Below the pieces are notes generated by a model. That model worked only from the letters and a program-made list of their open reading frames with translations. It made no database searches and was not told where the DNA came from. Made by a program: the position numbers and the translations under genes. A stretch of DNA of 64,000 bases from Eremomyces bilateralis CBS 781.70 (lineage: Eukaryota): NCBI GenBank assembly GCA_010015585.1, contig ML975177.1, one strand, 5' to 3'. Shown here piece after piece: positions 43,183 to 64,000 of this stretch. Every line of letters begins with the position of its first letter. Positions within the stretch are counted from its first letter, which is position 1.

Positions 43183-45598
43183 TCAAAGCTTTGCCAAGCC
43201 ATTCTGTATCTTCATCCATGCTGCTCCATCTAATACTCGATACGTATCTCCGTCCAGCCAGTATCGCGAACTGGCTTGGCTCGGCTCGGCTGGGTCCCAC
43301 TGTTCCTTTTTCCATATCTGCTTGTCATGCTTGAAGGACGCCCCAACATCAAGTCTAACAACCACCATGATTAGTCTCGCCATAGTTCAGTCAGATATAG
43401 TCAACGTACCGATCAACCATAGCTAGAAGCCGAGGCACTGCATACTGAGGGACTCCACGATGCTTGAAAACACCTGGGAGCTTGCCGACAAATGCGACTT
43501 CTGCGTCTTTCGACAACTGCGTCAACGCCACTGCAGCCGTGCCCATCTGCCCGTCATAGCCATCCATCTTCCTACCCACGACAATCGCCTCCAAGACTTC
43601 GGGCATATCCGATATGTACCCCGCAATCTCCCCAGCGCTGACGTTCTCCCCCTTCCACCGGAAGGTGTCCCCAACACGGTCGTAAAACCGTATCCATCCC
43701 CATCGATCTTGGATGACAAGGTCTCCGGATCTTTGAAACATATCTCCGTCGGCAAAAACATTCCGTAATATCTTCGCATCGGTTGCGTCCTGGTTGTGTA
43801 GATAGTCGGTATATGTCGCTAGGCTCCTGATCCGTCCAATCGCTTCTCCAGGTTCATTTGGAGACGCCGGAACGCAAAATCCGGTCCGCCGATCCCTGTA
43901 AGGCTGCTGAGAAGCTTCATCGAATTTGATAATGAAGCAATCGTCCTCCAGCCACCTCCGCACCAAGCCTTTGTAGCCTACATATCCTGCGCCGAATTTA
44001 TTATGTAAATGCCGATTGTCGTACTTCGCCAGGCCCTCGGTTGATCGGTAGAATTCACGGATTTCCGGGATCCCAAACCGCTTCTTGAAATTCATCCAGA
44101 CGTCCTTCTGCAGCCCATTTCCCATCGCCACAATGCAGCCATGTCCCCGATCATGCGGGGAGGGGGGCTGGGCTAACAGGTAACGGCACAACTCTCCAAC
44201 ATACAGCATCCTTGTTGCTCGGCTCCGCCGGATCTCCTCAAAGTGTCGTGTTGCTGAGAATTTCCGTCCAAGACACAGAGCCCCCGAGGTCCCCACGCTA
44301 TAACAGAGACCTGTAAATAACGATGTGCCGTGAAAGAGGGGCATGGAGGTATATGTCCGAACGGGAAAGTAATATTTCGGCTTGTCGGTATCAGGAGTCG
44401 TCGGAGTCGAGACAATACACATATGCATGTTCTTGACACTGCAGGCTTTGGGCATTCCAGTTGTCCCTGAGGTATATACCAGTGCTGCTATATCGATGGG
44501 CCGCCTCTTAGCCTTAGCTACTTCGCGGCCATGGTGCGGGTCTGATGGGGTGATCGATATGACTTGCCCATCTGGCTTTTCAGATCGAGGAAAACTGCCA
44601 AAATCGACGACCACGAGCCCTTGACCGGGGCATTCAGAAGCTGCGGTTGCTGGAAGAGTAAGAGCGGACTGCACTGTATCGGGGCTGCAGATGATGTACT
44701 TTGAGCCAGCGAGGTTTGTACAATATTGGAGGGGGTCCCCTATCACGCCAAATTGTCAGCTCCTCATCTTCCTTCATGCTGACTGCTGCTTCACAATGAC
44801 GGCGTGTGCATTCATCGCAAAGGCGCCGTAACTGCTCAAGCATGATTTAGGGCAAATGTCTCGAAGCTTCAAGGAAGAACGCTTTCACAGCCGAGGGCCT
44901 TCGAATGACAATCAACACCCTGTGTTCCCATGACAGTTGAGTACATCCTTCATGAAGCCTAAGTTCCTCGAAACAGCTAAAGATATAGATCACTAGAAAA
45001 CACCTGGATGTTGGAGAAGTACTCCAAGACTGCGAATCATGGCAGATATCTTCACCGTTGCATAATGGAACTCGGATACAGGATAGGGTTCCTAACACCT
45101 TTAAACATTATCAAAAGAAAGGGAACACATACCTTTCAAGTTCGAGTTGATCAATGCGGGAGCCGCCCCCAACTTTGCCAATGCATAAATGACGAACACC
45201 ATCTCAGGCGAATTGGTCATGTACACGGCCACCAGATTCCCATCATCGACGCCCAAATCGCTCAACGACGCCGCAATCCGATCGACATCTGCTCTGCGTC
45301 AGCCCATTGTATATTATGCCCATCCAATAGTGTCCGACCGACCATCCTTCATCGCCCGATAACTCCAGCTCTTCCCTTCGAACCATAATGCATCCGCATC
45401 CTCGTCCGCCAATCCCAGCATGCCATAGAGCGTGACATAGTCCCCCAACTGCTCCACCCGAGATTGTAGTCGTTGGCCGAAGAGGCGCTCGTCGCGATAT
45501 TGAAGGAGGTCGTAGTGGATCCCCAGCGTGGAATCCACGAGGGCCGCGCCTGTCGCTGCGGCGGCTGCGGAAAGAAGGTGACGGTTAGCGTTGCGCAT
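43183..45598 (-). CDS. FATP/very-long-chain acyl-CoA synthetase-like (Fat1/CefD1-like) with a C-terminal PTS1 (AKL); start uncertain
   Basis: YTSGTTGMPK, YVGELCRYL, EFYRSTEG, RSGDL and DRVGDTFRWKGENVS; the last exon ends ...NGLAKL*. Confidence 0.9.
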
Positions 45599-46357: not shown

Positions 46358-46479
46358 TCTCTGTCGTCTGCCATGAATGGCCGAGTCAGCAAATGCCGCT
46401 CGCCATGGTAGTCCTTCTCTCTGTCGTCTGCCATAAATGGCCGAGATAGCAACTGCTGATCGCCATGGTTGCCCTTCTC
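46358..46479. repeat. 60-bp direct tandem duplication (2 copies) downstream of Argonaute
   Basis: tctctgtcgtctgccatgaatggccgagtcagcaaatgccgctcgccatggt versus tctctgtcgtctgccataaatggccgagatagcaactgctgatcgccatggt. Confidence 0.85.
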
Positions 46480-46757
46480 GATCCTCCACCACCATCGACC
46501 TCTCCGAGTGTGGCTTTTTTTGGTGTTTTGATTTCTCTGAGGGCCCGTTCCCTGAACCCAAGCACTGATGAACTATGCCATTTTTGAATTGCGGCACGGG
46601 TGAGACGTGTCGGACACATCCTAGAAACCCTGATCGCGGAAAGGAAAGAAAAGAAACGGAAACGGAAACGAGAAGTAGGGAATTCGAACTATGCATCGTT
46701 GGATGGACCTGGCGGCTCGATGCACACCTGTCGTCCATGAAGTCTTGAGATCAAGAC

Positions 46758-49700
46758 TTACATGTACCAAGAGGTGAAAGGGTACCAACTGTGGTACTTG
46801 TGTTGGATCTTCATCAAGTCAGATGCCTCGTCACCTTTGACCAAGCCAGTCGGATTGTTGGGATCCTGCTTCTCGAAGTCGGAAGGGGACTTCGACGGCT
46901 CGTCTATATATCCCTTCTTGCTCTCGGGAGACTTGCTCTTGGACCGCTTTGATGCGGACTCGGACACCTTATCCTTTGGCGGACCCCCAGGAGGTCCCTT
47001 ATGTGCATTTTTCTTGCCCGATGACACGAAGGGCTTGTTCATATGGGCCTCTCCACGCTTCGCAGCCAAGTGTGCATAGTACACAGCAGGGAACAAAGAG
47101 ACGGGAGTTGTTGCTCGAGCGTACTGGAAGCTGTGCTCAAAGATGAGCTGCTGCAGTTCGGGGCCGGTGAAATTGTTCTCATTGTAAATACAATGATAGT
47201 GGATCGGACGGCAGGTTCCTTTGATCGCAGAGTGGGGGTTCATGTACCAGTCGAACTCGAAGGGATGAGTGACTCCGGTCTCTACAAGAACGCCGGGAAC
47301 GGGATTGCCATTTTTATCGCGGGCAGCTTGGCTCTTCGGATTGAAACGCACATGGTGGCGTTTGCTGGCAATTAGGACCGTGATCGGGATTTTATATTTA
47401 GGGTTCAATTCCCTAAAGAGCCGCTTGATTTCATTGACCTCGATGTCAAGAACCTGGTTGTATTGTTGTTCGGAAACACCGTCGCGGACGTAAAGAAGCC
47501 GTCGTGGCGTCTGGCCTTTGTTCAGGTCGATCCAATGGGCGACGGGCTCCTTGAACATCTTAACCCAATTGGATGGCCGGATAATCTCCTCCCGATGGCC
47601 GTTGGAGTTCACCCACCCCATATAGTTGCAGCACTGGGGGTCTTTGGACACAGTGATGGAGGCCATAGAATGTTCCTCAGAACCAGGAGGCCCGTGGCTC
47701 ACATCTGCGCCAATGATCATGAGTGAATCTTGGGAGTGGCGCGGACGATACATGTTGAGCTGGGATTTCTTGGTCAGGAACCCATTCTCCTTGAGCGCGC
47801 GGGAATTGATTCCCCCAAGCTTCGAATTGACCTTCAGGAGAACGTTGCTGATGTATTGATCCTGGCATTTCATCACGCCTGCGCTCTGCAGGACCTGGGA
47901 GGCAAGCCCGAAGCGGCAATCGCAATTGCGTTTTATGATCTTGTAAAGATCGGCGGTCCGGTCCTGGACAATGAAAAAGATAAGCTTCGGGAGAACTCCC
48001 AGCTTCTTCCCGCTCTCATTCCAGGCATGTAGGATGTTGTTTCCACCGGCACCCGGAGCTCCGCGGATAAGAGCTGGGATTGTGGCTGGCAAATTCAAGC
48101 CGTGGGCTTTGGCAATAGCCGACATTCTCGAAAAAAAGGCTTGGTAGGGGGCTGGATGTGGGTTCTTCGGGTCACTATCTGGACCAAAGACCATGACACC
48201 GTACGGGATCTGTCCTGGGTATGGCTTCAGGAACTTCTTCCCATCGATCCTCCACCGGCCTTGCCCAGCAGAGCTACCAAGTATCTTGCCATTTCCGAAG
48301 TGGACGTCAGGCGCCTCGAGAAGTCGACCCTTAGTGACTGTGGGCTGGTCCGAAATATGAAGCCCGTATTGGCGGAGATGCGAGTCATTTTGCCAATCTA
48401 GGGACTTGATGCCTTCGCGGATGGAACCGAACCGCTGGTTCGGTAGAGTAGCTGCGAACCTCATCATTGAACCTACCTGCGCCTCATCAAGCTTGTACAG
48501 GTAACGCTGATTTGGTTCAACTTTGGCAAACTCCAAGGCGATGAACTGGCCCCGGGTTGTCTCGATCAAAGGCAATTCGCGGACATGAGCGTTGTAAGCC
48601 TTTCGGTAATACTGTTTTACAGTCATCGAAGTGCCGTCCTTCAATTCGAAGGTTTTCAAATCCGGCGTTGACGCGATAAATCGCTTGACGATATAACGGC
48701 GCGTACAGTTCGAGCGCATGTCGGTGGTGATCGTCAGCTTGTTCAGCCGTTTGGTCGCCTTGTAGAAGCGGCTCTCGGGCCACTTCTCACGGTTTCGAAC
48801 GAAATCATCGATGAGCCAGTCGACATTCTTAGCTCCGAGCATCGATCCAAGCAAAGGAATGACCTCCGACGCTTCGAAAAAGCAGGTATTCGCCACGTCG
48901 ACATTGACAGCAAGATGTGCGCGGAGGTCTGCAGTCAATACTGGCCGGATCGATGCATAGACGCCCTTCACAGCCTCGACTCCCTTTCCCAATGAGATCC
49001 GACCGGTGAGCGGCACCTTAGACTCCGAAGCAGGACGCCAGTAAGGAGGGAAAAAGTTCCGCTTGGCCGAAATCATGCGACGGGACGGACCCTCACGCAT
49101 CAGATGGTCAAGGAACGTCAGAGACTCGAGCACCTTGATGTCCCAGTCTGCCTGCTTGCCGAGCCAGGCATGAAGATTGGTGAAGTCAACTTTCTTGGCC
49201 AAGGCAATGCGAACATGCTTGACTTCACGTCCAGCCCGATCCGGCTGGTTCTTCGCTATCGCAGGATCTACAGCGATCGTCGCCACTCCTGAGAGCTTCT
49301 TGGTGGACCTGAAGGTGGTTAGCGAAAAATATTACTAAAAAAAGATATTCCAGAATATCAAAGTTGCAGAATCTTACCAGGCAAGCTTGTTCCCATCCCA
49401 GATCCAGTCGTCGAAACCACCTTGCGAGCGCACTTGCTTGACCTCACTGGAATCCCACAATGTCTTCATGAAGCCCCGTTTCTCAGCTCCGTCGCCGATC
49501 TCAATGTCGTATTGATAGACATCCTTGGTGGGGATTTTGTCGAGAGCATAGGAGTTCAGCTCGATGTCAACTGGCTTCCCGTTCATATTGAAGCCATGAG
49601 GACGTTTGGGGATTTCACCCAGAGAGGACTGTGACCCAGCGTAAGTACTAAGTATAAGATGTCCAGCCTTCCACGCATTTGGCTCAAGAATATTGAGCCC

Positions 49701-50539
49701 CCGAAGACGCATGTCGCAACCAAACTTGTCCAGCTCCATGCTGGAGTAGACATCTGGGGGGTCTGCTGCGCGAGGGTATAGGGGGAGGGATGCCATTTTG
49801 GGAGTTGGGCTCTTGGACTTTGGGGGGGAACGAGACTGCCCTCCATTCTTGGAGTTCCCCGAGCCCGCCATGGCCGTCTGAGTGGAGTTGTGCAATAGCA
49901 ATGGGTAATGAATGATTGAGGAAATAGATAAGAGAAGAGAAAAGGAGCGAAAGAAGAGAAGTCCTGAAGAAAGAATTGAGGGCTCTGCAGAAAAGAAGGA
50001 AGAAGAAAGTTGGAAGCACGAGGGACAGAGAGCAGGTTTTAAAGGAACAGGTAGTATGGATCTTTATTGATGACAGAGATCAATGATGGCGAGCAAACGG
50101 GAGAACGCCGACATTCGTTTGTCGAACTCCACCTGGATATGCAACATAGGCCGCTAGCCGCAACTCTACATACATAGGGGTAATGCCAATTGGCGGCACG
50201 CGAAACACCGGGAAAGGAGGTGATGGAAATGTGATCATAACTTACAACTTCAGGGCGGAAAATTTGGTAGGCGCGTGCACCCAACTCAACATTCCGAAGA
50301 TGATTCGGCATAATGAACGTGGGTTCTGGTGCAATAATACGCTCGGGGGACAATCGCGAGCGAGGCTGGGAACGGTCCCGGTTACCATCCAAGCCGGGAA
50401 TTGAGCGACCGTACGACGAGGACGGCACGCTTATGCTTTCATATGAGTCCTTTGCAATGGTGCTGGTCGGCTTCACGGTAGCTGACGATCCTGAAGGGCG
50501 ACCCTTCCTGTTGTCTCCATTGCCGCGTGGCCCACCCAT
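46758..50539 (-). CDS. Argonaute (fungal RNAi; N-PAZ-MID-PIWI) with two possible first coding exons (ATG 50539 or ATG ~49871)
   Basis: ArgoN (VYQYDI, WIWDGNKLAW), KGVYASIRP, NVDVANTCF, PAZ, NVLLKVNSKLGGIN and PIWI motifs GADVSH, REEII, RDGVSE, KRHHVRF, GTCRPIHY and YYAHLAAKRG, giving a DEDH tetrad. Confidence 0.96.
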
Positions 50540-51708
50540 GATGGGCAATGAGCTCTTGAAAATGTGACTAAGTTAGGGTCAGTAATGGTACAAGGCAGAG
50601 ATAACAATTGGGGAGGTTCAGTGCAATGTGAAAACACGGCTCATTGGAGAAATCTACGCATAACGGACAGCCAGTAGTGCCGTAGCCTTGACAAGTCGAG
50701 CAGTAGACTAAAATCAGTGACAAACCAAAGCGATGAGTGGCTTCGCTTCAATGACGAGCAAGCACACTCTTTGCTAAAGTTAAGGAAACAAACAATGCCC
50801 TAACTCCAAGAGGATGCTGCTGATGACAGGTCAAGACAAGGAAACATTTCAGTGTTGGGATATAGATGTGACAGGAAGGTGAGATCAGATACCCCCCAAA
50901 ATGAAGGCGAAGGTGGTGGTGACAAGTGAGGAGATGCTTGGACGACTAGATCACTTGAGACTAGACTGTATGAGTTGGTTTGGGAGATGGAGAAAGCGAT
51001 GGCAGCAGCTAAATGAGAAAATGAAAAAAGGGAAGGAATGAAGACTGAGTCTGATAGACTTGAAGCCGATAAGAGGTAACTGATGGTTAGGGAATGGGAG
51101 AGACGGTGACGTTGATAGAGATGTAAAAGATGTTGACTCACCAGGAAGCTGATCAGGGTGAAGTCAAAGCCAATGCTGTGGCGAATATTAGTGGTTTCCT
51201 AGGGCGGTGAGTAGAAAGGATAGGTTTACCGACTGGTATCTTGGAGTAGTCGATGATAGGAAGGAGTGGGAGGGTCGATGATGGGAGAATGAGAGACGAA
51301 AAAGGGAGATGTGGAAGATGAGGGATGGAGGAAGAGGGAAAGGAAGGTGGGAAATATGTGGAGGGAGGAAGACCAAAATAAACAGTGCTGTGGTTGTGTG
51401 AGGTAGAGATAGCCGAGTGGGCAACAAAGGACACGTGAGGTTGGGTCCCAGTGGTAGGTGAAGGTCAGGTTGATAACGGATGGCTTGAAGGAAGGAGTGA
51501 GGGAATGTTTACATACCAGTACTGTACCACGGCGGATCAGATCTGAGTCTGGGGCAGCTGAGATTGAAACAAGGCGTCACTATCTGGTATGGGTTGGTAG
51601 ACGTGAGACCTGGGTGGAGTGATCAGTGAGTCGATGAAGTTCAAAGCGAGATCCGTCGAGAAGAGAGGGAGGGTAGTTGGGTTGGTAGGGGAAAGAAGGT
51701 TGAGATGA

Positions 51709-53816: not shown

Positions 53817-56800
53817 CTACCATCGCTTCCCTCCCGACGTATTCGCTCGACCCAAGTCCACACCCCGCAACAAGTCCACCACCCGCTCCGCATTGAACCG
53901 CGCCGACCCCTGGTACTTCTCCGCGTTCGGCAGGATCCCCAACAGGAACATCACCATGTTCGGCAGCGGCTCCACCCCGCCGCGCTGGATCCCGATCCCT
54001 GGCGTGCCTGCCCCGCCGCCACCACCACCGCCGAGCCGTCGTTGCGCGTCGAGCCGTCGCCCTGCCGCGCCTTTCAGCGGGGACTCGCTGCGGTCCGTAC
54101 GCGCCAGTTTGCGGGACCCGATGCCGAGGGAGTCGTTGTCGGATTCGTCGGCGGGGAGGGGCCGCTTGGGGGAGTTGGTAGAGCTGTTGGAAGCGACGAA
54201 CGCGGCGGCGAGAGCGGAGGGGGATTGGCCTGGTTGAGCTAGTTGCATCGGAAGCGGGCGAGGAGAGCTGATTTGGGGGGTTGGGGCGCGATAGCCGCCG
54301 GTCTGGGCGGGCTCGTGGATTTGCGGGGGGAGGGCCATTTTGGGTCGCATCTGGGCGGCCGGGGAGGTGACGAGGCGGACGGCGGTGGGGTCGAAGGATT
54401 GGAAGATGTATCGCTGGGTGAATCGGGTGAGGCGAGGGTCTTCGGGGAAGAGATCCGCCATCCGCTGCTCGAGCTTGACGATCTGGCTGAGTTCGCCGTA
54501 CTGGCATTCATATTCGTGCAAGAACTGGAACAAGACTTTGGCCCTGGGGACGTTCTCGGGTTTCTTCGAAAGTTTGGAGACCGCCGTTTCGAACACCGCT
54601 CGAGCATTGGTGACGTCGTTCGTGTTGATGAGGTGCTTCATGTATGCGAGGGCGAATTGTTCGTCTTCGGGGAAAAGCTTGAATCCGGCGTCGAAGATTC
54701 GTTTGGAAGCCGGATCTTTGTAGCAGTGGTACTCCATAAGAGCACTGGCAACGAAGACGTCGCTCGTCATGCGACCTCTACCACGTGCCTCTCGCAAATA
54801 ACCCCGGAGGCCACCGACCCATTCCTTCTTGACTAGGCTGCCTTTGTGTGTGACGTCAACCATCTTGCCTTTGCCTTGCACTCTCCTCATGGCTCGCATT
54901 AAAGCAATCCATGAGAACGAAATGGTCCTGGATATCATCTTGATTTGCGCAGCATGGCCCTTCTTGATGGCACCGAGTTGTGCGTCAAGGGCGGCCTTTC
55001 GAAGCGCCTCCTCTCTCGCTCCTGCATCCTCTTCATCGTCGCTCTCTGGAGCTTCCCTCTTCTGCTGCTCTTCGAAGTTTTCTTTGGCGATGCCTGCCGC
55101 ACGCGCTTCCCGGGCCTTGACTTTGTCAACGAGACCATAGAGTGTGTCCAAGAGCTTGTCGTAAGGCTGCTTGATTGCATCGGCCCTCTTCTGGATATCA
55201 TCGTCACCGTCGGCGTGTGGTGTAGTCATCTCAAGGTGGTCAGCCTTCCTGAATGCCAAGAGACAGCTTTCCGGATTCGCATCGGTGCCATCATCTAGAA
55301 GCTTCTCCCCGTCTTCCTTCATGCCGTTCCGGAAGCAGAACTCGATGGCATCGTACCACATTGGAGGCCAGAACCACAAAGCCATGAGGGCCTGTCGATA
55401 GGCGTACAAGATCCTCCGATTGTATGCAGCGAGATCTTCATCTTTGAGAACCAGTGGATCTTCTTTCTCCCACTCCACCCATTTCTGCCAAAGGTGGACC
55501 TGTTCCATGTATTCCACATCCCCGTCAAAGCCCAGCGCAGGGGGAAGGCGCGGCAAAGTTGTCCTTCGCAATCCGTTCGTGACATTTTGTAGTGCGATGT
55601 TTGCACTTCTTGCCGTGATGTAGGTCGGGGAGCGTTCCTGGAGGAGTTTACGACCCTGACGATGTAAGCGTAATTCCACAAGTCTTGGTTATGAATTGAC
55701 CTACGGTTGTCCTGTTCAAGCCAGTCTCGAAAGCGTCATATTCCTTCCACAGCGGAATGACGGCGTCAGTGGGTACCGACGTGGCTCTCTGATACGCCTT
55801 TCGCAAGAGATCCATTTTCTGCTGATCTTGCCATCCGCCGCCACCGAGATTGCCGGGTCCTGATCGAAGGAATTGAATATATTCCCGCCAAATCTCACCC
55901 GAATCCTTGTCCGTCCCGACCTCTTGCAAGACGCGCTCGAAAGCTTCAGAAACCGTTCGTCGAGCAGTTCCACTGAGATCGGTTGTGAGATTGTTGAATC
56001 GTCGCACGAAGTCCAGGTAGACTTTCCACAACTGAACATTCCTGACCTTTGCCAAGGAAGTCCCAAGAATCTGCGTGACTCGCGGGATTTCGTTGTTTTC
56101 CAGTTCCATATTGGCGTAAGCGACCCATTGCTCCGCCTGGGGACAGTTAGCTGGTGCGCTTCAAGGAAAAGGAGCGACTCACAGCTTGAGGGAAGATGGT
56201 GAAGAATCGGTCGTAGACTTTGCGCGCTTCATCGAGCTTGTTGCGCTTCTGATGCAATTGAATGAGACTCAACCAGGCATCCAGATCGCCGCGAGGATCC
56301 TCCGCGATCCGGTCCTCGAGCATTCCTACATGATCACTTGGAAGCCGGGCGTTGGAAGCATTGAGGGTAGCAGCAGGGTCCGCGGGAGATTGCAACGCGT
56401 TGACTGTAGCATTAGGAGCTTGGTTTGCAGGCTGCGGAGAACGGCTTTGGTCAGGGACAGCGGAGCCAAGAGGCTTGTCAACGGGATGCGGAGTAGCAGA
56501 CTGAGAAGGAACAGCAGGAGTAGCAGCCGCAGAACGAGCTTGGTCTTGAGGAGCAGCTTGTTGTAGTGATACATAGTTTGCTGAGAACGCGTTGCTTGGC
56601 GATTGAGTGATGGTGGAAGACATTGCAGGAGCCTGAGCGGCATTCAACATCCCATTTCCATTTGCATTCCCATGCGCCAAATGTACCCCTTGTTCCTCCT
56701 CCTCCTCATCGTCCTCGTCCTCGTCATCATCAACAACGAACCCAGCTCTTGTCTTCGGCTGCTTTGGCGGGCTGGGCTCGTCGGGTGTCTCGTTGAGGTC

Positions 56801-59058: not shown

Positions 59059-62000
59059 TTACAAATACCTCTTCTCAAGGGACTCGTCATAGCATTGAAT
59101 TTGGTCGCCAACTTTGAAGTCCTCCCAGTTGTCAAATCCAATACCGCACTCGGTACCCTTGCGCATTTCCGTGGTGTCCTTCTTGACGTTTTTTAATGAA
59201 GAAAGCGAGCCTGTGAGAAGGTTAGCCAGGAACTTGAGCGACGGGGATAATTACGGGAAGGCAATGGGCTGTTGTTCCGAAGCTGTGTCGACATACCTTG
59301 GTAGATGACGTCCTTATTCCGCAGAACTTTGACTTTGCTGTTTCGGGTCATGACGCCGTTCTTGACCTTGCATCCCGCAATGAAGAGCTGCTTGTTGCGC
59401 TTCATGTTGATGGGGAAGATCTGCGCGATTTCCGCCTCGCCCGTGACCTTCTGTACCACAAGCGGAGGAAGGAACTCGCTCAGCTTCGCCCGGATATCTT
59501 CGGTTACCCTGTAGATAATATTCTGGTCGAAAATATCGACACCGAGCCTCTTCGCTTCCACCATGAATTTCGGGTCGACCCGCGTATTGAACGAGATGAT
59601 GTGACCGTGGGCGACGGCCGCGAAGTCCAGGTCCGTCTCGGTGACGGGGCCGACAGCCGACCGAACGATGATAGGGCGGACTTCTGCGTTTCCAATGCCA
59701 GATATGACGTTCACGACCGCTTCGACCGATCCCGAAACATCGGCTTTGACGATGAAAGGAATCGTCTTCGGCCCTGTAAGCGCGGTGTTCTCCCCCATTT
59801 TTTCCGCATCCTCGCTTGCTCTATCTTGATCTTTTGCTTTTCCATCTGCCGTCTCCTTCTCCCGCTTCCGTCGCTCCTGTACAAGCTTGCGCGCCTCATT
59901 GATCGCTTCCATGTCCTTCGCCATCCGTTGTCGATCGGCTTTCGCCTGACGGAAGTCGACCACCCGGGCGGCGTGCTGCTCGTCTTCGGCCTGCAAAACT
60001 TCATCGCCGGCCTCGGGTTGCGCTCTCCATCCGTCGATTTCGGCCGGCATGCCGGGACCGACCGACTTCATGGGTTTTCCAGCTTCGTTCATCAGGCGCC
60101 GGACGCGTGCCCATGTTTTGCCCGCGACGATGATATCGCCAGGTCTTAAGGTGCCTCGTCGAACGAGAACCGTCGCCATCAATCCGTCCCGCTTCTTGCT
60201 TGATTCGAGGACCCACCCTTCAGCTTTTCCATCCGGGTCGGCTCGGTTGTCCAACATTTCTGAGAGTGTCACGGTGGCTTCTTCGAGCTCGTCCATTCCT
60301 TGACCGGTCTTTCCGCTCACAAGGATGGCTTGAGTGTCACCTCCGAAATCTTCGATCTCGATTCCATTGACTGCTAGGTCCTGTTTGACCCGCCGAGGGT
60401 TTGCATCTTCCTTGTCAACTTTGTTGATGGCGACAATGATTGGGACTTTTGCGGCGTGGGCATGCTTGATTGCCTCGAGAGTCTGGGGCATAATGCTGTC
60501 ATCTGCAGCAACAACCAGAATAACGATATCGGTAACATTCGCACCACGCTCACGCATGGTCAAAAAGGCCGCATGGCCCGGAGTATCCAGGAAAGTGATG
60601 GTCTTTCCTGAGGAGGAGAGCGGCACGCTGAAAGCACCAATGTGCTGGGTGATCCCGCCATGTTCGTTTGCGGCAATCGATGATTTGCGCAAGTAATCTA
60701 AGAGAGTAGTCTTTCCATGATCGACATGTCCCATGATGGTTACGACAGGGGGTCGTTGAGGCCAACTGCTTTTGTCTTCTGGATTAGGAGCAGGGAACAA
60801 GTCTTTCTCATCCTCATCCTTAGTTTGCTGAGGGTTAAAGCCATACTCTTGAGCAACCAAACCCGCATCTTCTCCTGTGAGTACTTGATCGTGATTGACA
60901 TCTTCAAACCCAAGCTCGAGCATCTTGTTGACAAACTTGTCTAGTGGAACCCCAAGAGCCTGGGCGAGGTTGGAAACCGAAATGAATTCGGGGAGAATGA
61001 TTTCCGCCCTTTTTTTCTTGGCTGCCTCAGCCCTTCTAAGGTCTTTCATCGTCCGGCGAAGGGCTCGGTCGACGTGGGCTTCAGAATAGGAGACATCCCC
61101 ATGCCCTCGACCCTTGGCGACCACCGGTCGGCGTCGTGGTTTCTCTTCCATTCCGGAGTGACGCTGTCGCTCCGAAGACCAACGCGAAGGGCTCGGTTGT
61201 GGATTGTAGAAGTCATCAGTAGACGCTACACGTGGTGCAGGTTTTGGGACGACAGGGTTTGGGAACCCTGCCTTTAAGTTTGTGTCTGGCTGTGAGCGCA
61301 GCGGAAGATGCGAGTCAAATGTGGGCGAATAAGATGCAGTGGCAGGCTGTCTTCTTGTTTCAGTATCTGGTCCACTGGGCCCTTCGTGTCGGGCCATTGG
61401 TGTTTTGCGGAGGCAATTCATAGACCAGTGCTCCTTGCTCCCACATATTCTGCATCCTTGCTGGCCCAGCTGAACGTAATTGCCGCCCCGTGTCTCCTGC
61501 CGGCGTTTCTCCCGACCCTGAAGATATGCCTCCATCTTCGGGTCCCGCTCTTGCACGGCTGGGGCCACTATCTTGTGGCTTGCTCCTAACGGTTCTCCTC
61601 GGGATCCTCCCAGTAAATTCCATGACGCTGCGTCTGGGGGTGGTTGTGGGGGTGTCGTGGCCTGTGGCGTGTCGTGCGGATGAAGTCGGAATTGCAGCGG
61701 CCTCGATTCGAGTTGGGCTTCTCTCGTGCGGGGCGTAAGGTTATGCTGCCAGTTAAGCGGTCGTTTATTTTGGGTTGGAGTACGAAACCCAGGGGTAGAA
61801 CCACTGCCGCTATCTTCTCTCACGCCCGGTGAACGGGGAGCCTGAGAGACACTCGGAGCGGGAGTCCTTCTTACAACAGGCTCGCGCCGAACAGGACGTA
61901 AACCTGCCGCATGGATTCGGGGCCCAGACTGTTCCTTTCGCTCGAATAAAGCCTGTCTTTCCCGCAACTCTCCCTGTGACAAGTCCGAGTTTACTCTAGG

Positions 62001-62288
62001 TCTTGTGATCTGGTTCGACGGTATACTAAACTGTCCGAAGCCCTGCCACTGACTCCTGTCTCCATCTTGGTTGGCTTGCGACTCTTCCCGTGGAGCGACT
62101 TGCCATTGAGGGCGTGATTGAGAAGGTTGAGAGTAGGGTCGTCGAGCAGTCCATGTCAGAGCATGTGGTCTAAAGAAGCCGGCGCATATCGAGCAGATCT
62201 CATGTGGATGAGAAAGTTTCTGAAGGACGATCAGATTGACAGACACGAAAGGAGAGGGAAAGTTATTCCCATACCTTGATAGACGCAT
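59059..62288 (-). CDS. IFM1: Mitochondrial translation initiation factor IF-2
   Basis: [54 protein letters not shown] and last exon SSLKNVKKD...GTECGI. The start (MRLSR + intron) is inferred. Confidence 0.95.
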
Positions 62289-64000
62289 TTCGAGGCATAG
62301 TATAGAGTGAAACAGCCCCAATACAAAGAACTTCCACAACTAAAAAGAGGTATCAAGTGGTTCCATCGGCGATTCAATTCCGCAGTGAGCTCCAGCCGCG
62401 AGATGCCAACAGGAGATACCGATTGCCATCAAAAAAGTTCCGGTCGAGATCCCGATAATAAGTGGGGCCACTTTATATATAGCACGTGACTGCCTGAGAT
62501 ACTGGCAGGGACATCGACGATCCAGAAATGACATGAACTGTTTCAACTCCAAAAACCTCTCCCATTCACAGTTCACCTAATTATATTCGATATTCGATAA
62601 TGTCTTCTGAGTGCCTTAGCATTGATTGGTTCGCAGGCCTAAAAAATATTTTAGAACTCAGTTTCCCTTCTTCATTTAATATATCCGATCAGGCCGTGAA
62701 TCGACTGACGGCATCAAGAGTTCAGGACTACATCCTCAAATGATCCCCCTTCTTTCATTGCGCACCTGATCCGTGTACAACATACGGTACGCCATTCAAT
62801 CGAGGTGCTGGAGTGGCTACTCTGCTATCTCGGCAGCTTTGGGCGGCATTGGGCTTCCCGATTACGTACTTGCTTAAAAATGCTATGCCTGACACGTTTG
62901 GGATTCCGTATCGCGATCGCTATCGCGTTACATCAACCCTAGTGCCCTCCGTCACCAAGAATGTTGCTCTCGTATGTTCCATCGTCTTTCTCCTCTGCAT
63001 GAGGTATTTGCTTCCGCAATTTACAAGAAATCTCAAGTCAAAATTGTTAACTAGGGCTGTGGTACCTATTAATACCTACGCGACCTCCCGCAGGACCCAG
63101 GGGCCAGGACAGGGACAATGCACAATAATCAATAATGGAGCTTTGTTGGCAATCCAACCACTTAGCCAATGGGAGAATTGGCAATGAATGATCACCAATT
63201 TGGGTCAGACATGCTGCATGAGTGATGAGGCAATCGTCCAAACGAGTCAGGAATGTATTTCAAGAGTTCATCCGCGTAGCAACTAACTGGGGGTAGCCCA
63301 CTCTCACTAAGAGCTCTAGAAACATGAATAGCAGCGACAGGCCAAAAACCCCAAACCATCGAGGCGGAGCACCACGTGTGAAGTCCAGAAATACTTCCTA
63401 GCTATGCCTTATCAGGTTATCCTAGATTTCCATGTACGTACTTGGCGACAATCCCCACTCTTGCCTCTCAAAGACCAGGGTAACTTGAGGGTCGGCTTGG
63501 AGTCCACTGCAGGTTGCTATATATTGACAATGGATTGTTTTTGCCATCATGGAGACAGCCGAGATCGCGACGCCCGTGAACTAAGGAACTCTCCGCCGCT
63601 GCTACAACTCCCCTGCGACACACCGGCGATTCTACCATCCGGGAGATAGTCTGTTTGGCATGAACGAGATACTCATCCAGGGGCCTGGCCTTCGAATGGC
63701 ATCGGCTTAAATGGCTACCGTATTATCTATCATGATGGTAATTATATTTACCGTGAGACAGTCGTGGTGGGTGCTAGCCTACGACAGACCGCCGGTTTAA
63801 CCGGACCGTAAGCGCATGCCAACATTAATAATACAATGATGACCATGTACGGCATGTACATAATAGTATCAGAGACTCGGAGTCAAACAAGCCAAAAGAT
63901 GACTGGCGCGGATCGGATGGCTTCCGCGTCGTGGTGGAGGCGCGGAGCAATTTAATCTTTCTAAGTTCTTACATAGTTACTACTTACAGAACGGCGCATG

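Follow-up and report, generated by a model that had tools for sequence, protein, structure and literature searches.

The 64,000-nucleotide (nt) stretch of Eremomyces bilateralis CBS 781.70 analysed here (contig ML975177.1; the whole stretch is called the window) carries an Argonaute gene that probably has two alternative first coding exons, one nested in the intron of the other. The outer one, exon A, starts at an ATG at 50539 on the minus strand and is spliced over a long first intron. The inner one, exon B, would start at an ATG at 49871 within that intron and give the protein a different N-terminal tail. That exon A and its splice are genuine is near certain. The second start is probable, because the window's own signals are joined by the same architecture under visible constraint in other fungi. 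A first-pass annotation had proposed this arrangement from the letters of the window, and what it described for exon A was found to within one base: the ATG at 50539, a GTAAGT donor at 50245, and a phase-0 splice over a 617-nt intron to an acceptor at 49629.

In its A form the whole gene has three exons and two introns on the minus strand (window 46758-50539):

50246..50539, minus strand: coding part of exon A, 98 codons from the ATG at 50539-50537, an N-terminal tail with DGNRD and RNVELGARAY motifs.
49629..50245, minus strand: intron 1 of the A form, 617 nt, phase 0, GTAAGT donor to CAG acceptor, assigned from the sequence and from homologous introns in relatives.
49641..49647, minus strand: branch-like TACTTAC, 12 nt 5' of the acceptor AG; relatives have CTAAC or CTGAC at the matching place.
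49378..49628, minus strand: exon 2, common to both forms, the start of the N domain (SSLGEIPKRP... QYDIEIG...), assigned from the reading frame and an ArgoN match.
49309..49377, minus strand: intron 2, 69 nt (GTAAGA...GCTAAC...CAG), assigned from the sequence and from the public protein, which reads ...KLAWSTKKLSG... over it.
46758..49308, minus strand: exon 3, the remaining Argonaute (L1, PAZ, L2, Piwi) with the C-terminus ...SWYM and the stop codon, assigned from the frame, the public protein and Pfam.

The donor occupies 50245-50240, directly after exon A, and the acceptor AG lies at 49630-49629, so that exon 2 runs from 49628. The TACTTAC element has one mismatch to the usual fungal branch sequence CTRAC.

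The gene is a eukaryotic Argonaute of the AGO clade, QDE-2 type. The public protein of this strain (P0001, a 970-amino-acid "Piwi-domain-containing protein") is 100% identical to the window's large exon. A Pfam search of P0001 placed ArgoN at residues 55-191, L1 at 202-266, PAZ at 296-401, L2 at 412-458 and Piwi at 563-877, which is the order ArgoN-L1-PAZ-L2-(MID)-Piwi with a separate MID match absent from that search. In an alignment of 120 sequences, D656 and D730 of the Piwi domain do not vary and E695 and H867 hardly vary; we take these to be the slicer Asp-Glu-Asp-His, the role of each residue being our assumption. AlphaFold models P0001 as a compact Argonaute, with a predicted local distance difference test score (pLDDT) of 86.4 and a predicted template modelling score of 0.87. 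The nearest relatives in two very large protein collections reach merely 45-46% identity, and a first scan of metagenomes with the full protein found no close relatives of the gene. Residues 884-935 of P0001 (window 46758-46960) form a Lys/Ser/Pro-rich insert of about 50 residues, predicted to be disordered (pLDDT <50), which stands before the conserved ...WYM end.

Exon A keeps the features that define the N-terminal tail in related fungi. Upstream of the N domain, relatives carry two motifs, D-G-N-R-D-P (or G-Y-D-P-A) and [KR]-N-[VIL]-[DE]-L-P-x-x-A-[YF], the second of which was found in 53 distinct instances. Exon A holds both, with order and spacing unchanged. A profile made from 22 first exons of other fungi, with the window excluded, scores exon A at 36.6 bits (E 2e-9), a value reached by none of 2000 shuffles. 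Another profile, built from 38 relatives and anchored by joining 80 upstream residues to the equivalent of exon 2, gives 107.5 bits for exon 2 alone and 119.4 bits for exon A plus exon 2; this gain of 11.9 bits is reached by 2 of 1000 shuffles of exon A. An earlier, unanchored profile of the disordered upstream regions was weak for both tails (7.6 bits for A, reached by 11 of 1000 shuffles, and -0.2 bits for B). By this conservation exon A appears to be under purifying selection. The structure model of an A-type relative shows the motif region as moderately ordered (pLDDT 72-74).

Farther upstream of exon A, on the same minus strand, lies a long CT-rich region (about 51450-50900). Two short upstream open reading frames, with ATGs at 50661 and 50644, precede the exon. 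A GTGAGT near 51141, together with a textbook branch and acceptor sequence (ACTGAC..CTAAC..TTAG) ending near 50572, suggests that the A transcript may have an intron in its 5' untranslated region (window 50572-51141), which would excise both upstream ATGs.

The position of intron 1 is conserved as well. Metagenome contigs were scanned with an alignment of N-terminal Argonaute parts, yielding 80 fungal loci. Of these, 24 (21 distinct sequences) have an intron between the matches to the upstream-exon and N-domain-exon profiles, in phase 0 and at the window's position. These homologous introns have GTAAGT-type donors and a CTAAC or CTGAC branch before the AG. Their lengths are 49-121 nt in 8 of the 21 distinct loci and 240-1209 nt in the remaining 13 (L009, L011, L014, L017, L020, L028, L046, L053, L057, L063, L071, L074 and L075), the splice assignment being uncertain for L009 and for the first registration of L063. 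No intron at all is present in at least five loci (L001, L007, L010, L013 and L055), which read straight through the site. Fungal introns are mostly 50-100 nt. Since introns are usually that short, a long one that recurs at a single site calls for an explanation.

This evidence bears on the view that only a B-type protein is made, as in the public model or extended to the ATG at 49871, and that exon A is a dead remnant or part of an upstream non-coding transcript. The public E. bilateralis model does begin in the exon B frame, at its third in-frame Met (MELDKFGCDM, 49739), and leaves exon A out. Many public Argonautes from Leotiomycetes and Aspergillus are likewise annotated with short B-type starts. 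However, exon A is intact in its ATG, its 98 open codons and its perfect donor, which is in phase with the acceptor; both family motifs are retained, with the profile score given above; and its intron sits at a conserved position. In addition, intron-free A-type proteins are encoded on contigs little longer than their coding sequences (P0002, 3258 nt; P0200, 3580 nt; P0265, 3661 nt), which suggests, on an assumption about the nature of these contigs, that spliced A-type mRNAs exist in relatives. We regard production of a B-type protein alone as very unlikely.

The CT-rich leader and the second, stop-free start that the first-pass annotation saw inside intron 1 are both present. The nested unit, which overlaps the 3' part of the intron, consists of the following:

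50061..50068, minus strand: TATA-like box AATAAAGA, a weak variant.
50043-50036, minus strand: second TATA-like box TTTAAAAC, a weak variant.
49909..50032, minus strand: pyrimidine-rich (CT) tract with 30-nt windows of at least 83% C+T, which may act as initiator region of the nested promoter.
49629..49871, minus strand: candidate exon B-specific coding part, 81 codons from the ATG at 49871-49869, assigned from its stop-free run into exon 2 and its codon score.

Two in-frame starts join the same downstream exons, the ATG at 50539 by way of the splice and the ATG at 49871 by read-through, both in phase with exon 2. The exon B frame is open for 145 codons before the acceptor, back to 50063, and its codons run across both the branch site and the 3' splice site of intron 1. 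Additional in-frame Met codons lie at 49796, 49739 and 49712. The ATG at 49871 has a good context (GGCC before it and G after it) and is the first ATG in any frame after 50114. The 240-nt ATG-free leader that it ends spans both TATA-like boxes, and 93 of 2000 shuffles reach such a run. Codon usage in the proposed frame scores 0.129 per codon, the best of the three frames (-0.035 and -0.267 for the others). Known coding windows of the size of exon B have a mean of 0.173 (standard deviation 0.10), and the highest of 180 off-frame windows scores 0.041. When the 243 nt of exon B were subjected to 5000 dinucleotide shuffles, 315 were stop-free in frame, and 6 of those matched its codon score.

In the model that we favour, one QDE-2-type Argonaute gene would use these two first exons as alternatives. 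Form A would begin at ATG 50539 with the ancestral N-terminal extension (a basic start, DGNRD and RNVELGARAY) and be spliced over the 617-nt intron to exon 2. The inner promoter-like unit of TATA-like box, CT tract and ATG-free leader would start a second transcript within intron 1. From the first AUG of that transcript, at 49871, the frame would continue into exon 2 across a branch point and 3' splice site left unused, giving form B a different, probably disordered tail of 81 residues. The products would be about 1031 amino acids (A) and 1014 amino acids (B), identical from the start of the N domain on, and promoter choice would decide between them. Transcription from the inner promoter, translation of form B in E. 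bilateralis and a functional difference between the two forms are what we infer here from sequence.

Nested starts of the same kind recur in other fungal Argonaute loci. An in-frame Met with no stop between it and the acceptor is present in 10 of the 13 long introns, L063 being added once the frame of its N-domain open reading frame was used. The peptides that follow the Met are conserved within each clade. One clade has the start M-E-P-x-N-[FY]-R in 12 distinct loci and in a dozen public Leotiomycete proteins, and Aspergillus Argonautes have a related, slightly longer version of it. A Dothideomycete-like trio (L020, L028 and L057) shares a Met-peptide of 30 codons, in which six third-position changes fall within eight codons while the residues are kept. 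In four pairs, the ratio of nonsynonymous to synonymous differences (pN/pS) is 0.42-0.58 in the B-specific codons, similar to the 0.26-0.70 of the adjoining exon 2, values that rest for the B part on 23-30 codons in a protein-guided alignment, which biases them downward and counts against leaning on them for the nested start.

The signals around these starts also follow a common plan. A TATA-like box lies upstream of the B-ATG in 9 of the 12 relatives' introns examined, and after it come a stretch rich in pyrimidines and a leader poor in G. In the Dothideomycete-like trio the TATA-like block is conserved within introns that are elsewhere unalignable. The B-ATG is the first ATG in any frame past the TATA-like box in all nine loci, as it is in the window, with leaders of 162-549 nt; the numbers of shuffles, out of 2000, with an equally long ATG-free run were 0, 1, 23, 28, 36, 78, 151, 178 and 444 for the nine relatives. 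Among Leotiomycete-type loci with at least 200 nt of upstream sequence, the TATA-like box stands 271-351 nt before the B-ATG in 8 of 11, and the context of the B-ATG is uniformly of the type C-A-x-x-A-T-G-G. Of the 9 Leotiomycete-type loci with enough upstream sequence, 8 have an exon A and its donor, at a distance of 392-1153 nt before the B-ATG; two of these eight had served to build the exon-A profile. As in the window, the A intron's branch point and 3' splice site lie within B-specific codons in the relatives.

Several observations weigh against a functional exon B in E. bilateralis, and most of them also speak for a different reading of the gene. On that reading only form A is made, the segment 49871-49629 is plain intron that is open by composition or is the decaying relic of a former start, and the public model is mis-predicted, the unusual length of the intron having led it to miss exon A. 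Between 49684 and 50038 all three minus-strand frames lack stops, so the openness of exon B is partly compositional. Neither TATA-like box in the window is more than a weak variant, and by chance alone a hexamer of this kind should turn up about every 700 nt. The 81-residue exon B peptide, searched among 5.8 billion proteins, matched only the window's own public model. Against a profile of the B-type starts of other lineages exon B scores 25.4 bits, where shuffles have a mean of 25.6 and 891 of 2000 reach its score, and the window has a Leu at the place of the Met that is conserved in those lineages. One long-intron clade (L011, L014 and L017) has neither a TATA nor an ATG-free leader, and L014 carries GTG where L011 and L017 have the Met. 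AlphaFold gives pLDDT <50 for the last 36 residues of the exon B tail, which in itself would be neutral on whether the tail is coding. In X1, the one sequencing run in which the stretch was found, a single 7708-nt contig colinear with 46400-50447 retains both introns; being unspliced, it is DNA and says nothing on expression. Finally, a short intron in 8 of the 21 distinct loci, and none in the five read-through loci, indicate that a lineage can do without a B unit. Strong conservation was found for exon A but not for exon B.

That contrast also marks how far the first-pass annotation is borne out. Its proposal of two promoters and two isoforms, to be checked by the conservation of both first exons, stands for exon A, in its score and its intron position; the inner start is plausible (TATA-like box, CT tract, ATG-free leader, coding-like frame) and the layout is recurrent. 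Exon B itself found neither relatives in the databases nor a match to the B profile. Even so, production of form A alone has to account for a codon usage in exon B that lies in the coding range, above every off-frame control and rarely reached by open shuffles, for a long ATG-free leader that ends at an ATG in good context, and for the same architecture under visible constraint in other fungi. We consider it possible but rather doubtful, and a nested second start the more probable reading of the window.

Three further comparisons with exon B were tried and set aside. A derivation of exon B as a duplicate of exon A was rejected: BLASTP gives E 1.0, and with the A profile B scores 4.6 bits, a value that 100 of 2000 shuffles attain. 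A weak gain for B on the anchored profile (113.5 against 107.5 bits; 18 of 1000 shuffles) was not reproduced by the better exon-A profile. The window's I-L-E-P-N-A-W-K looks apt, by eye and by spacing, as the equivalent of the M-E-P-x-N-[FY]-R start; it gains no score over shuffles, and we make no claim for it. As for the X1 contig, its end at 50447 falls within exon A, and at 46400-46459 a short joint goes back on the sequence; both are most likely assembly-graph breaks without biological meaning.

A long intron could also be kept for a reason other than a second protein. It could hold an enhancer or an element for intron-dependent expression, or its inner transcript could be non-coding or regulatory and interfere with the outer promoter, the in-frame ATG being incidental. 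The leaders of L053, L063 and L074 share a conserved element some 30 nt long that is partly palindromic (core GTTGA...TCAAC-like), at about 555-585 in L063 and at the matching place in L053 and L074, 150-190 nt upstream of the acceptors, in leaders that otherwise align poorly. Such an element might bind a factor or fold into an RNA hairpin. The group 1 introns hold conserved blocks without a TATA, and for the Neurospora antiviral gene zao-1 a switch between transcription start sites that gives truncated regulators is described (PMC12754623). Against a purely non-coding role, the start Met and the peptide after it are conserved in relatives, with changes of the synonymous type, and an Rfam search of 49300-51300 matched no RNA family. 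We judge such an explanation for the intron unlikely.

With a nested second start as the preferred reading, it is quite possible, and we put it forward tentatively, that an intron-nested promoter is an old and widespread device of QDE-2-type Argonaute genes in Pezizomycotina, of which the Eremomyces gene would be one diverged instance. The outer promoter would give the long tail and the inner one a short or different tail, a switch of proteoform without a second gene that might operate, for example, on induction by virus or double-stranded RNA. As the codons of the B tail also serve the outer intron as its branch point and 3' splice site, such a device would couple promoter choice and splicing mechanically. 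The further suggestion of the first-pass annotation, that the isoforms divide labour between silencing pathways (quelling and sexual-stage silencing) or between compartments, is pure speculation.

Public annotation already contains both kinds of tail. Leotiomycete Argonautes are deposited with either a short B-type or a long A-type start. The B-type protein of Phialocephala subalpina and the A-type protein of Acephala macrosclerotiorum are 86% identical over 911 amino acids and diverge exactly at the start of the shared exon. Two predicted proteins, P0171 (Claussenomyces sp.) and P0179 (Pleopsidium flavum), have the A motif and a B-type motif, M-E-x-Q-N-F-R, contiguous in one chain. Either the intron is absent in these lineages or it was retained by the gene model, and both cases bear on the origin of the two units. 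Four Sclerotiniaceae proteins (P0199, P0202, P0208 and P0211) carry an A motif, R-V-E-L-P-C-Y-R-D-N-Y-D, that has the look of a cross between the A block and the B-type start seen in other Leotiomycetes. This hints that A and B are related by an old duplication, a relation that the window's own comparison of A with B does not support.

In plants and animals the loading specificity, localisation and turnover of Argonautes are under the control of their N-terminal extension. Should two tails be routine in fungal QDE-2-type genes, many public models are half-annotated, with the tail chosen haphazardly. Knock-outs, tags and antibodies directed against "the" N-terminus may then miss one form, and the induction of Argonaute by double-stranded RNA or virus could act through a separate promoter and so yield a different proteoform.

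The neighbouring genes, all on the minus strand, are ordinary housekeeping genes. Upstream lie a Suf/Rna14-like factor for 3'-end processing of mRNA (53820-55688) and, farther away, a translation GTPase of the IF-2 type (59196-62339); downstream lies an AMP-binding enzyme (43394-44755). A repeat search found no second copy of the Argonaute region within the window.

In its domain set the Eremomyces protein is like Neurospora QDE-2 and the QDE-2-type Argonautes of Pezizomycotina. It shares with them the C-terminal ...WY[IM], and several of its matches are named QDE-2-like by their sources. In full-text literature, whose coverage leaves out most subscription journals, we found no report of alternative first exons or of a first-intron promoter in any fungal Argonaute.

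The closest parallel comes from an animal. Caenorhabditis elegans has one Argonaute gene that gives two proteins, CSR-1A and CSR-1B, differing only in an N-terminal extension and set by the timing of expression, the long form having an additional N-terminal exon (PMC12908457). The likeness is that of one gene with two Argonautes that differ only in the tail, here proposed for a fungus from its DNA. CSR-1B is presumably contained within CSR-1A, which gains an added exon; the Eremomyces tails, in contrast, would be mutually exclusive, with the A intron's branch point and 3' splice site lying within B coding sequence.

More generally, the same source describes the N-terminal extensions of eukaryotic Argonautes such as Arabidopsis AGO1 as variable, largely disordered tails before the N domain that hold regulatory motifs (PMC12908457). 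Both tail types fit this pattern in that AlphaFold has low confidence in them (B in the window, A in a relative). Unlike those Argonautes, with a single tail per gene, the Eremomyces gene would encode two alternative tails, and its A tail ends in a fungus-wide motif, [KR]-N-[VIL]-[DE]-L-P-x-x-A-Y, that is moderately ordered in the model (pLDDT 72-74).

Mutually exclusive exons that arise by tandem duplication offer a further comparison. There, as here, two alternative 5' exons feed one acceptor region, and by eye the A motif of Leotiomycetes resembles their B start. The window departs from that scheme in having no significant similarity between A and B and in a choice that would be made by promoter, not by splicing.

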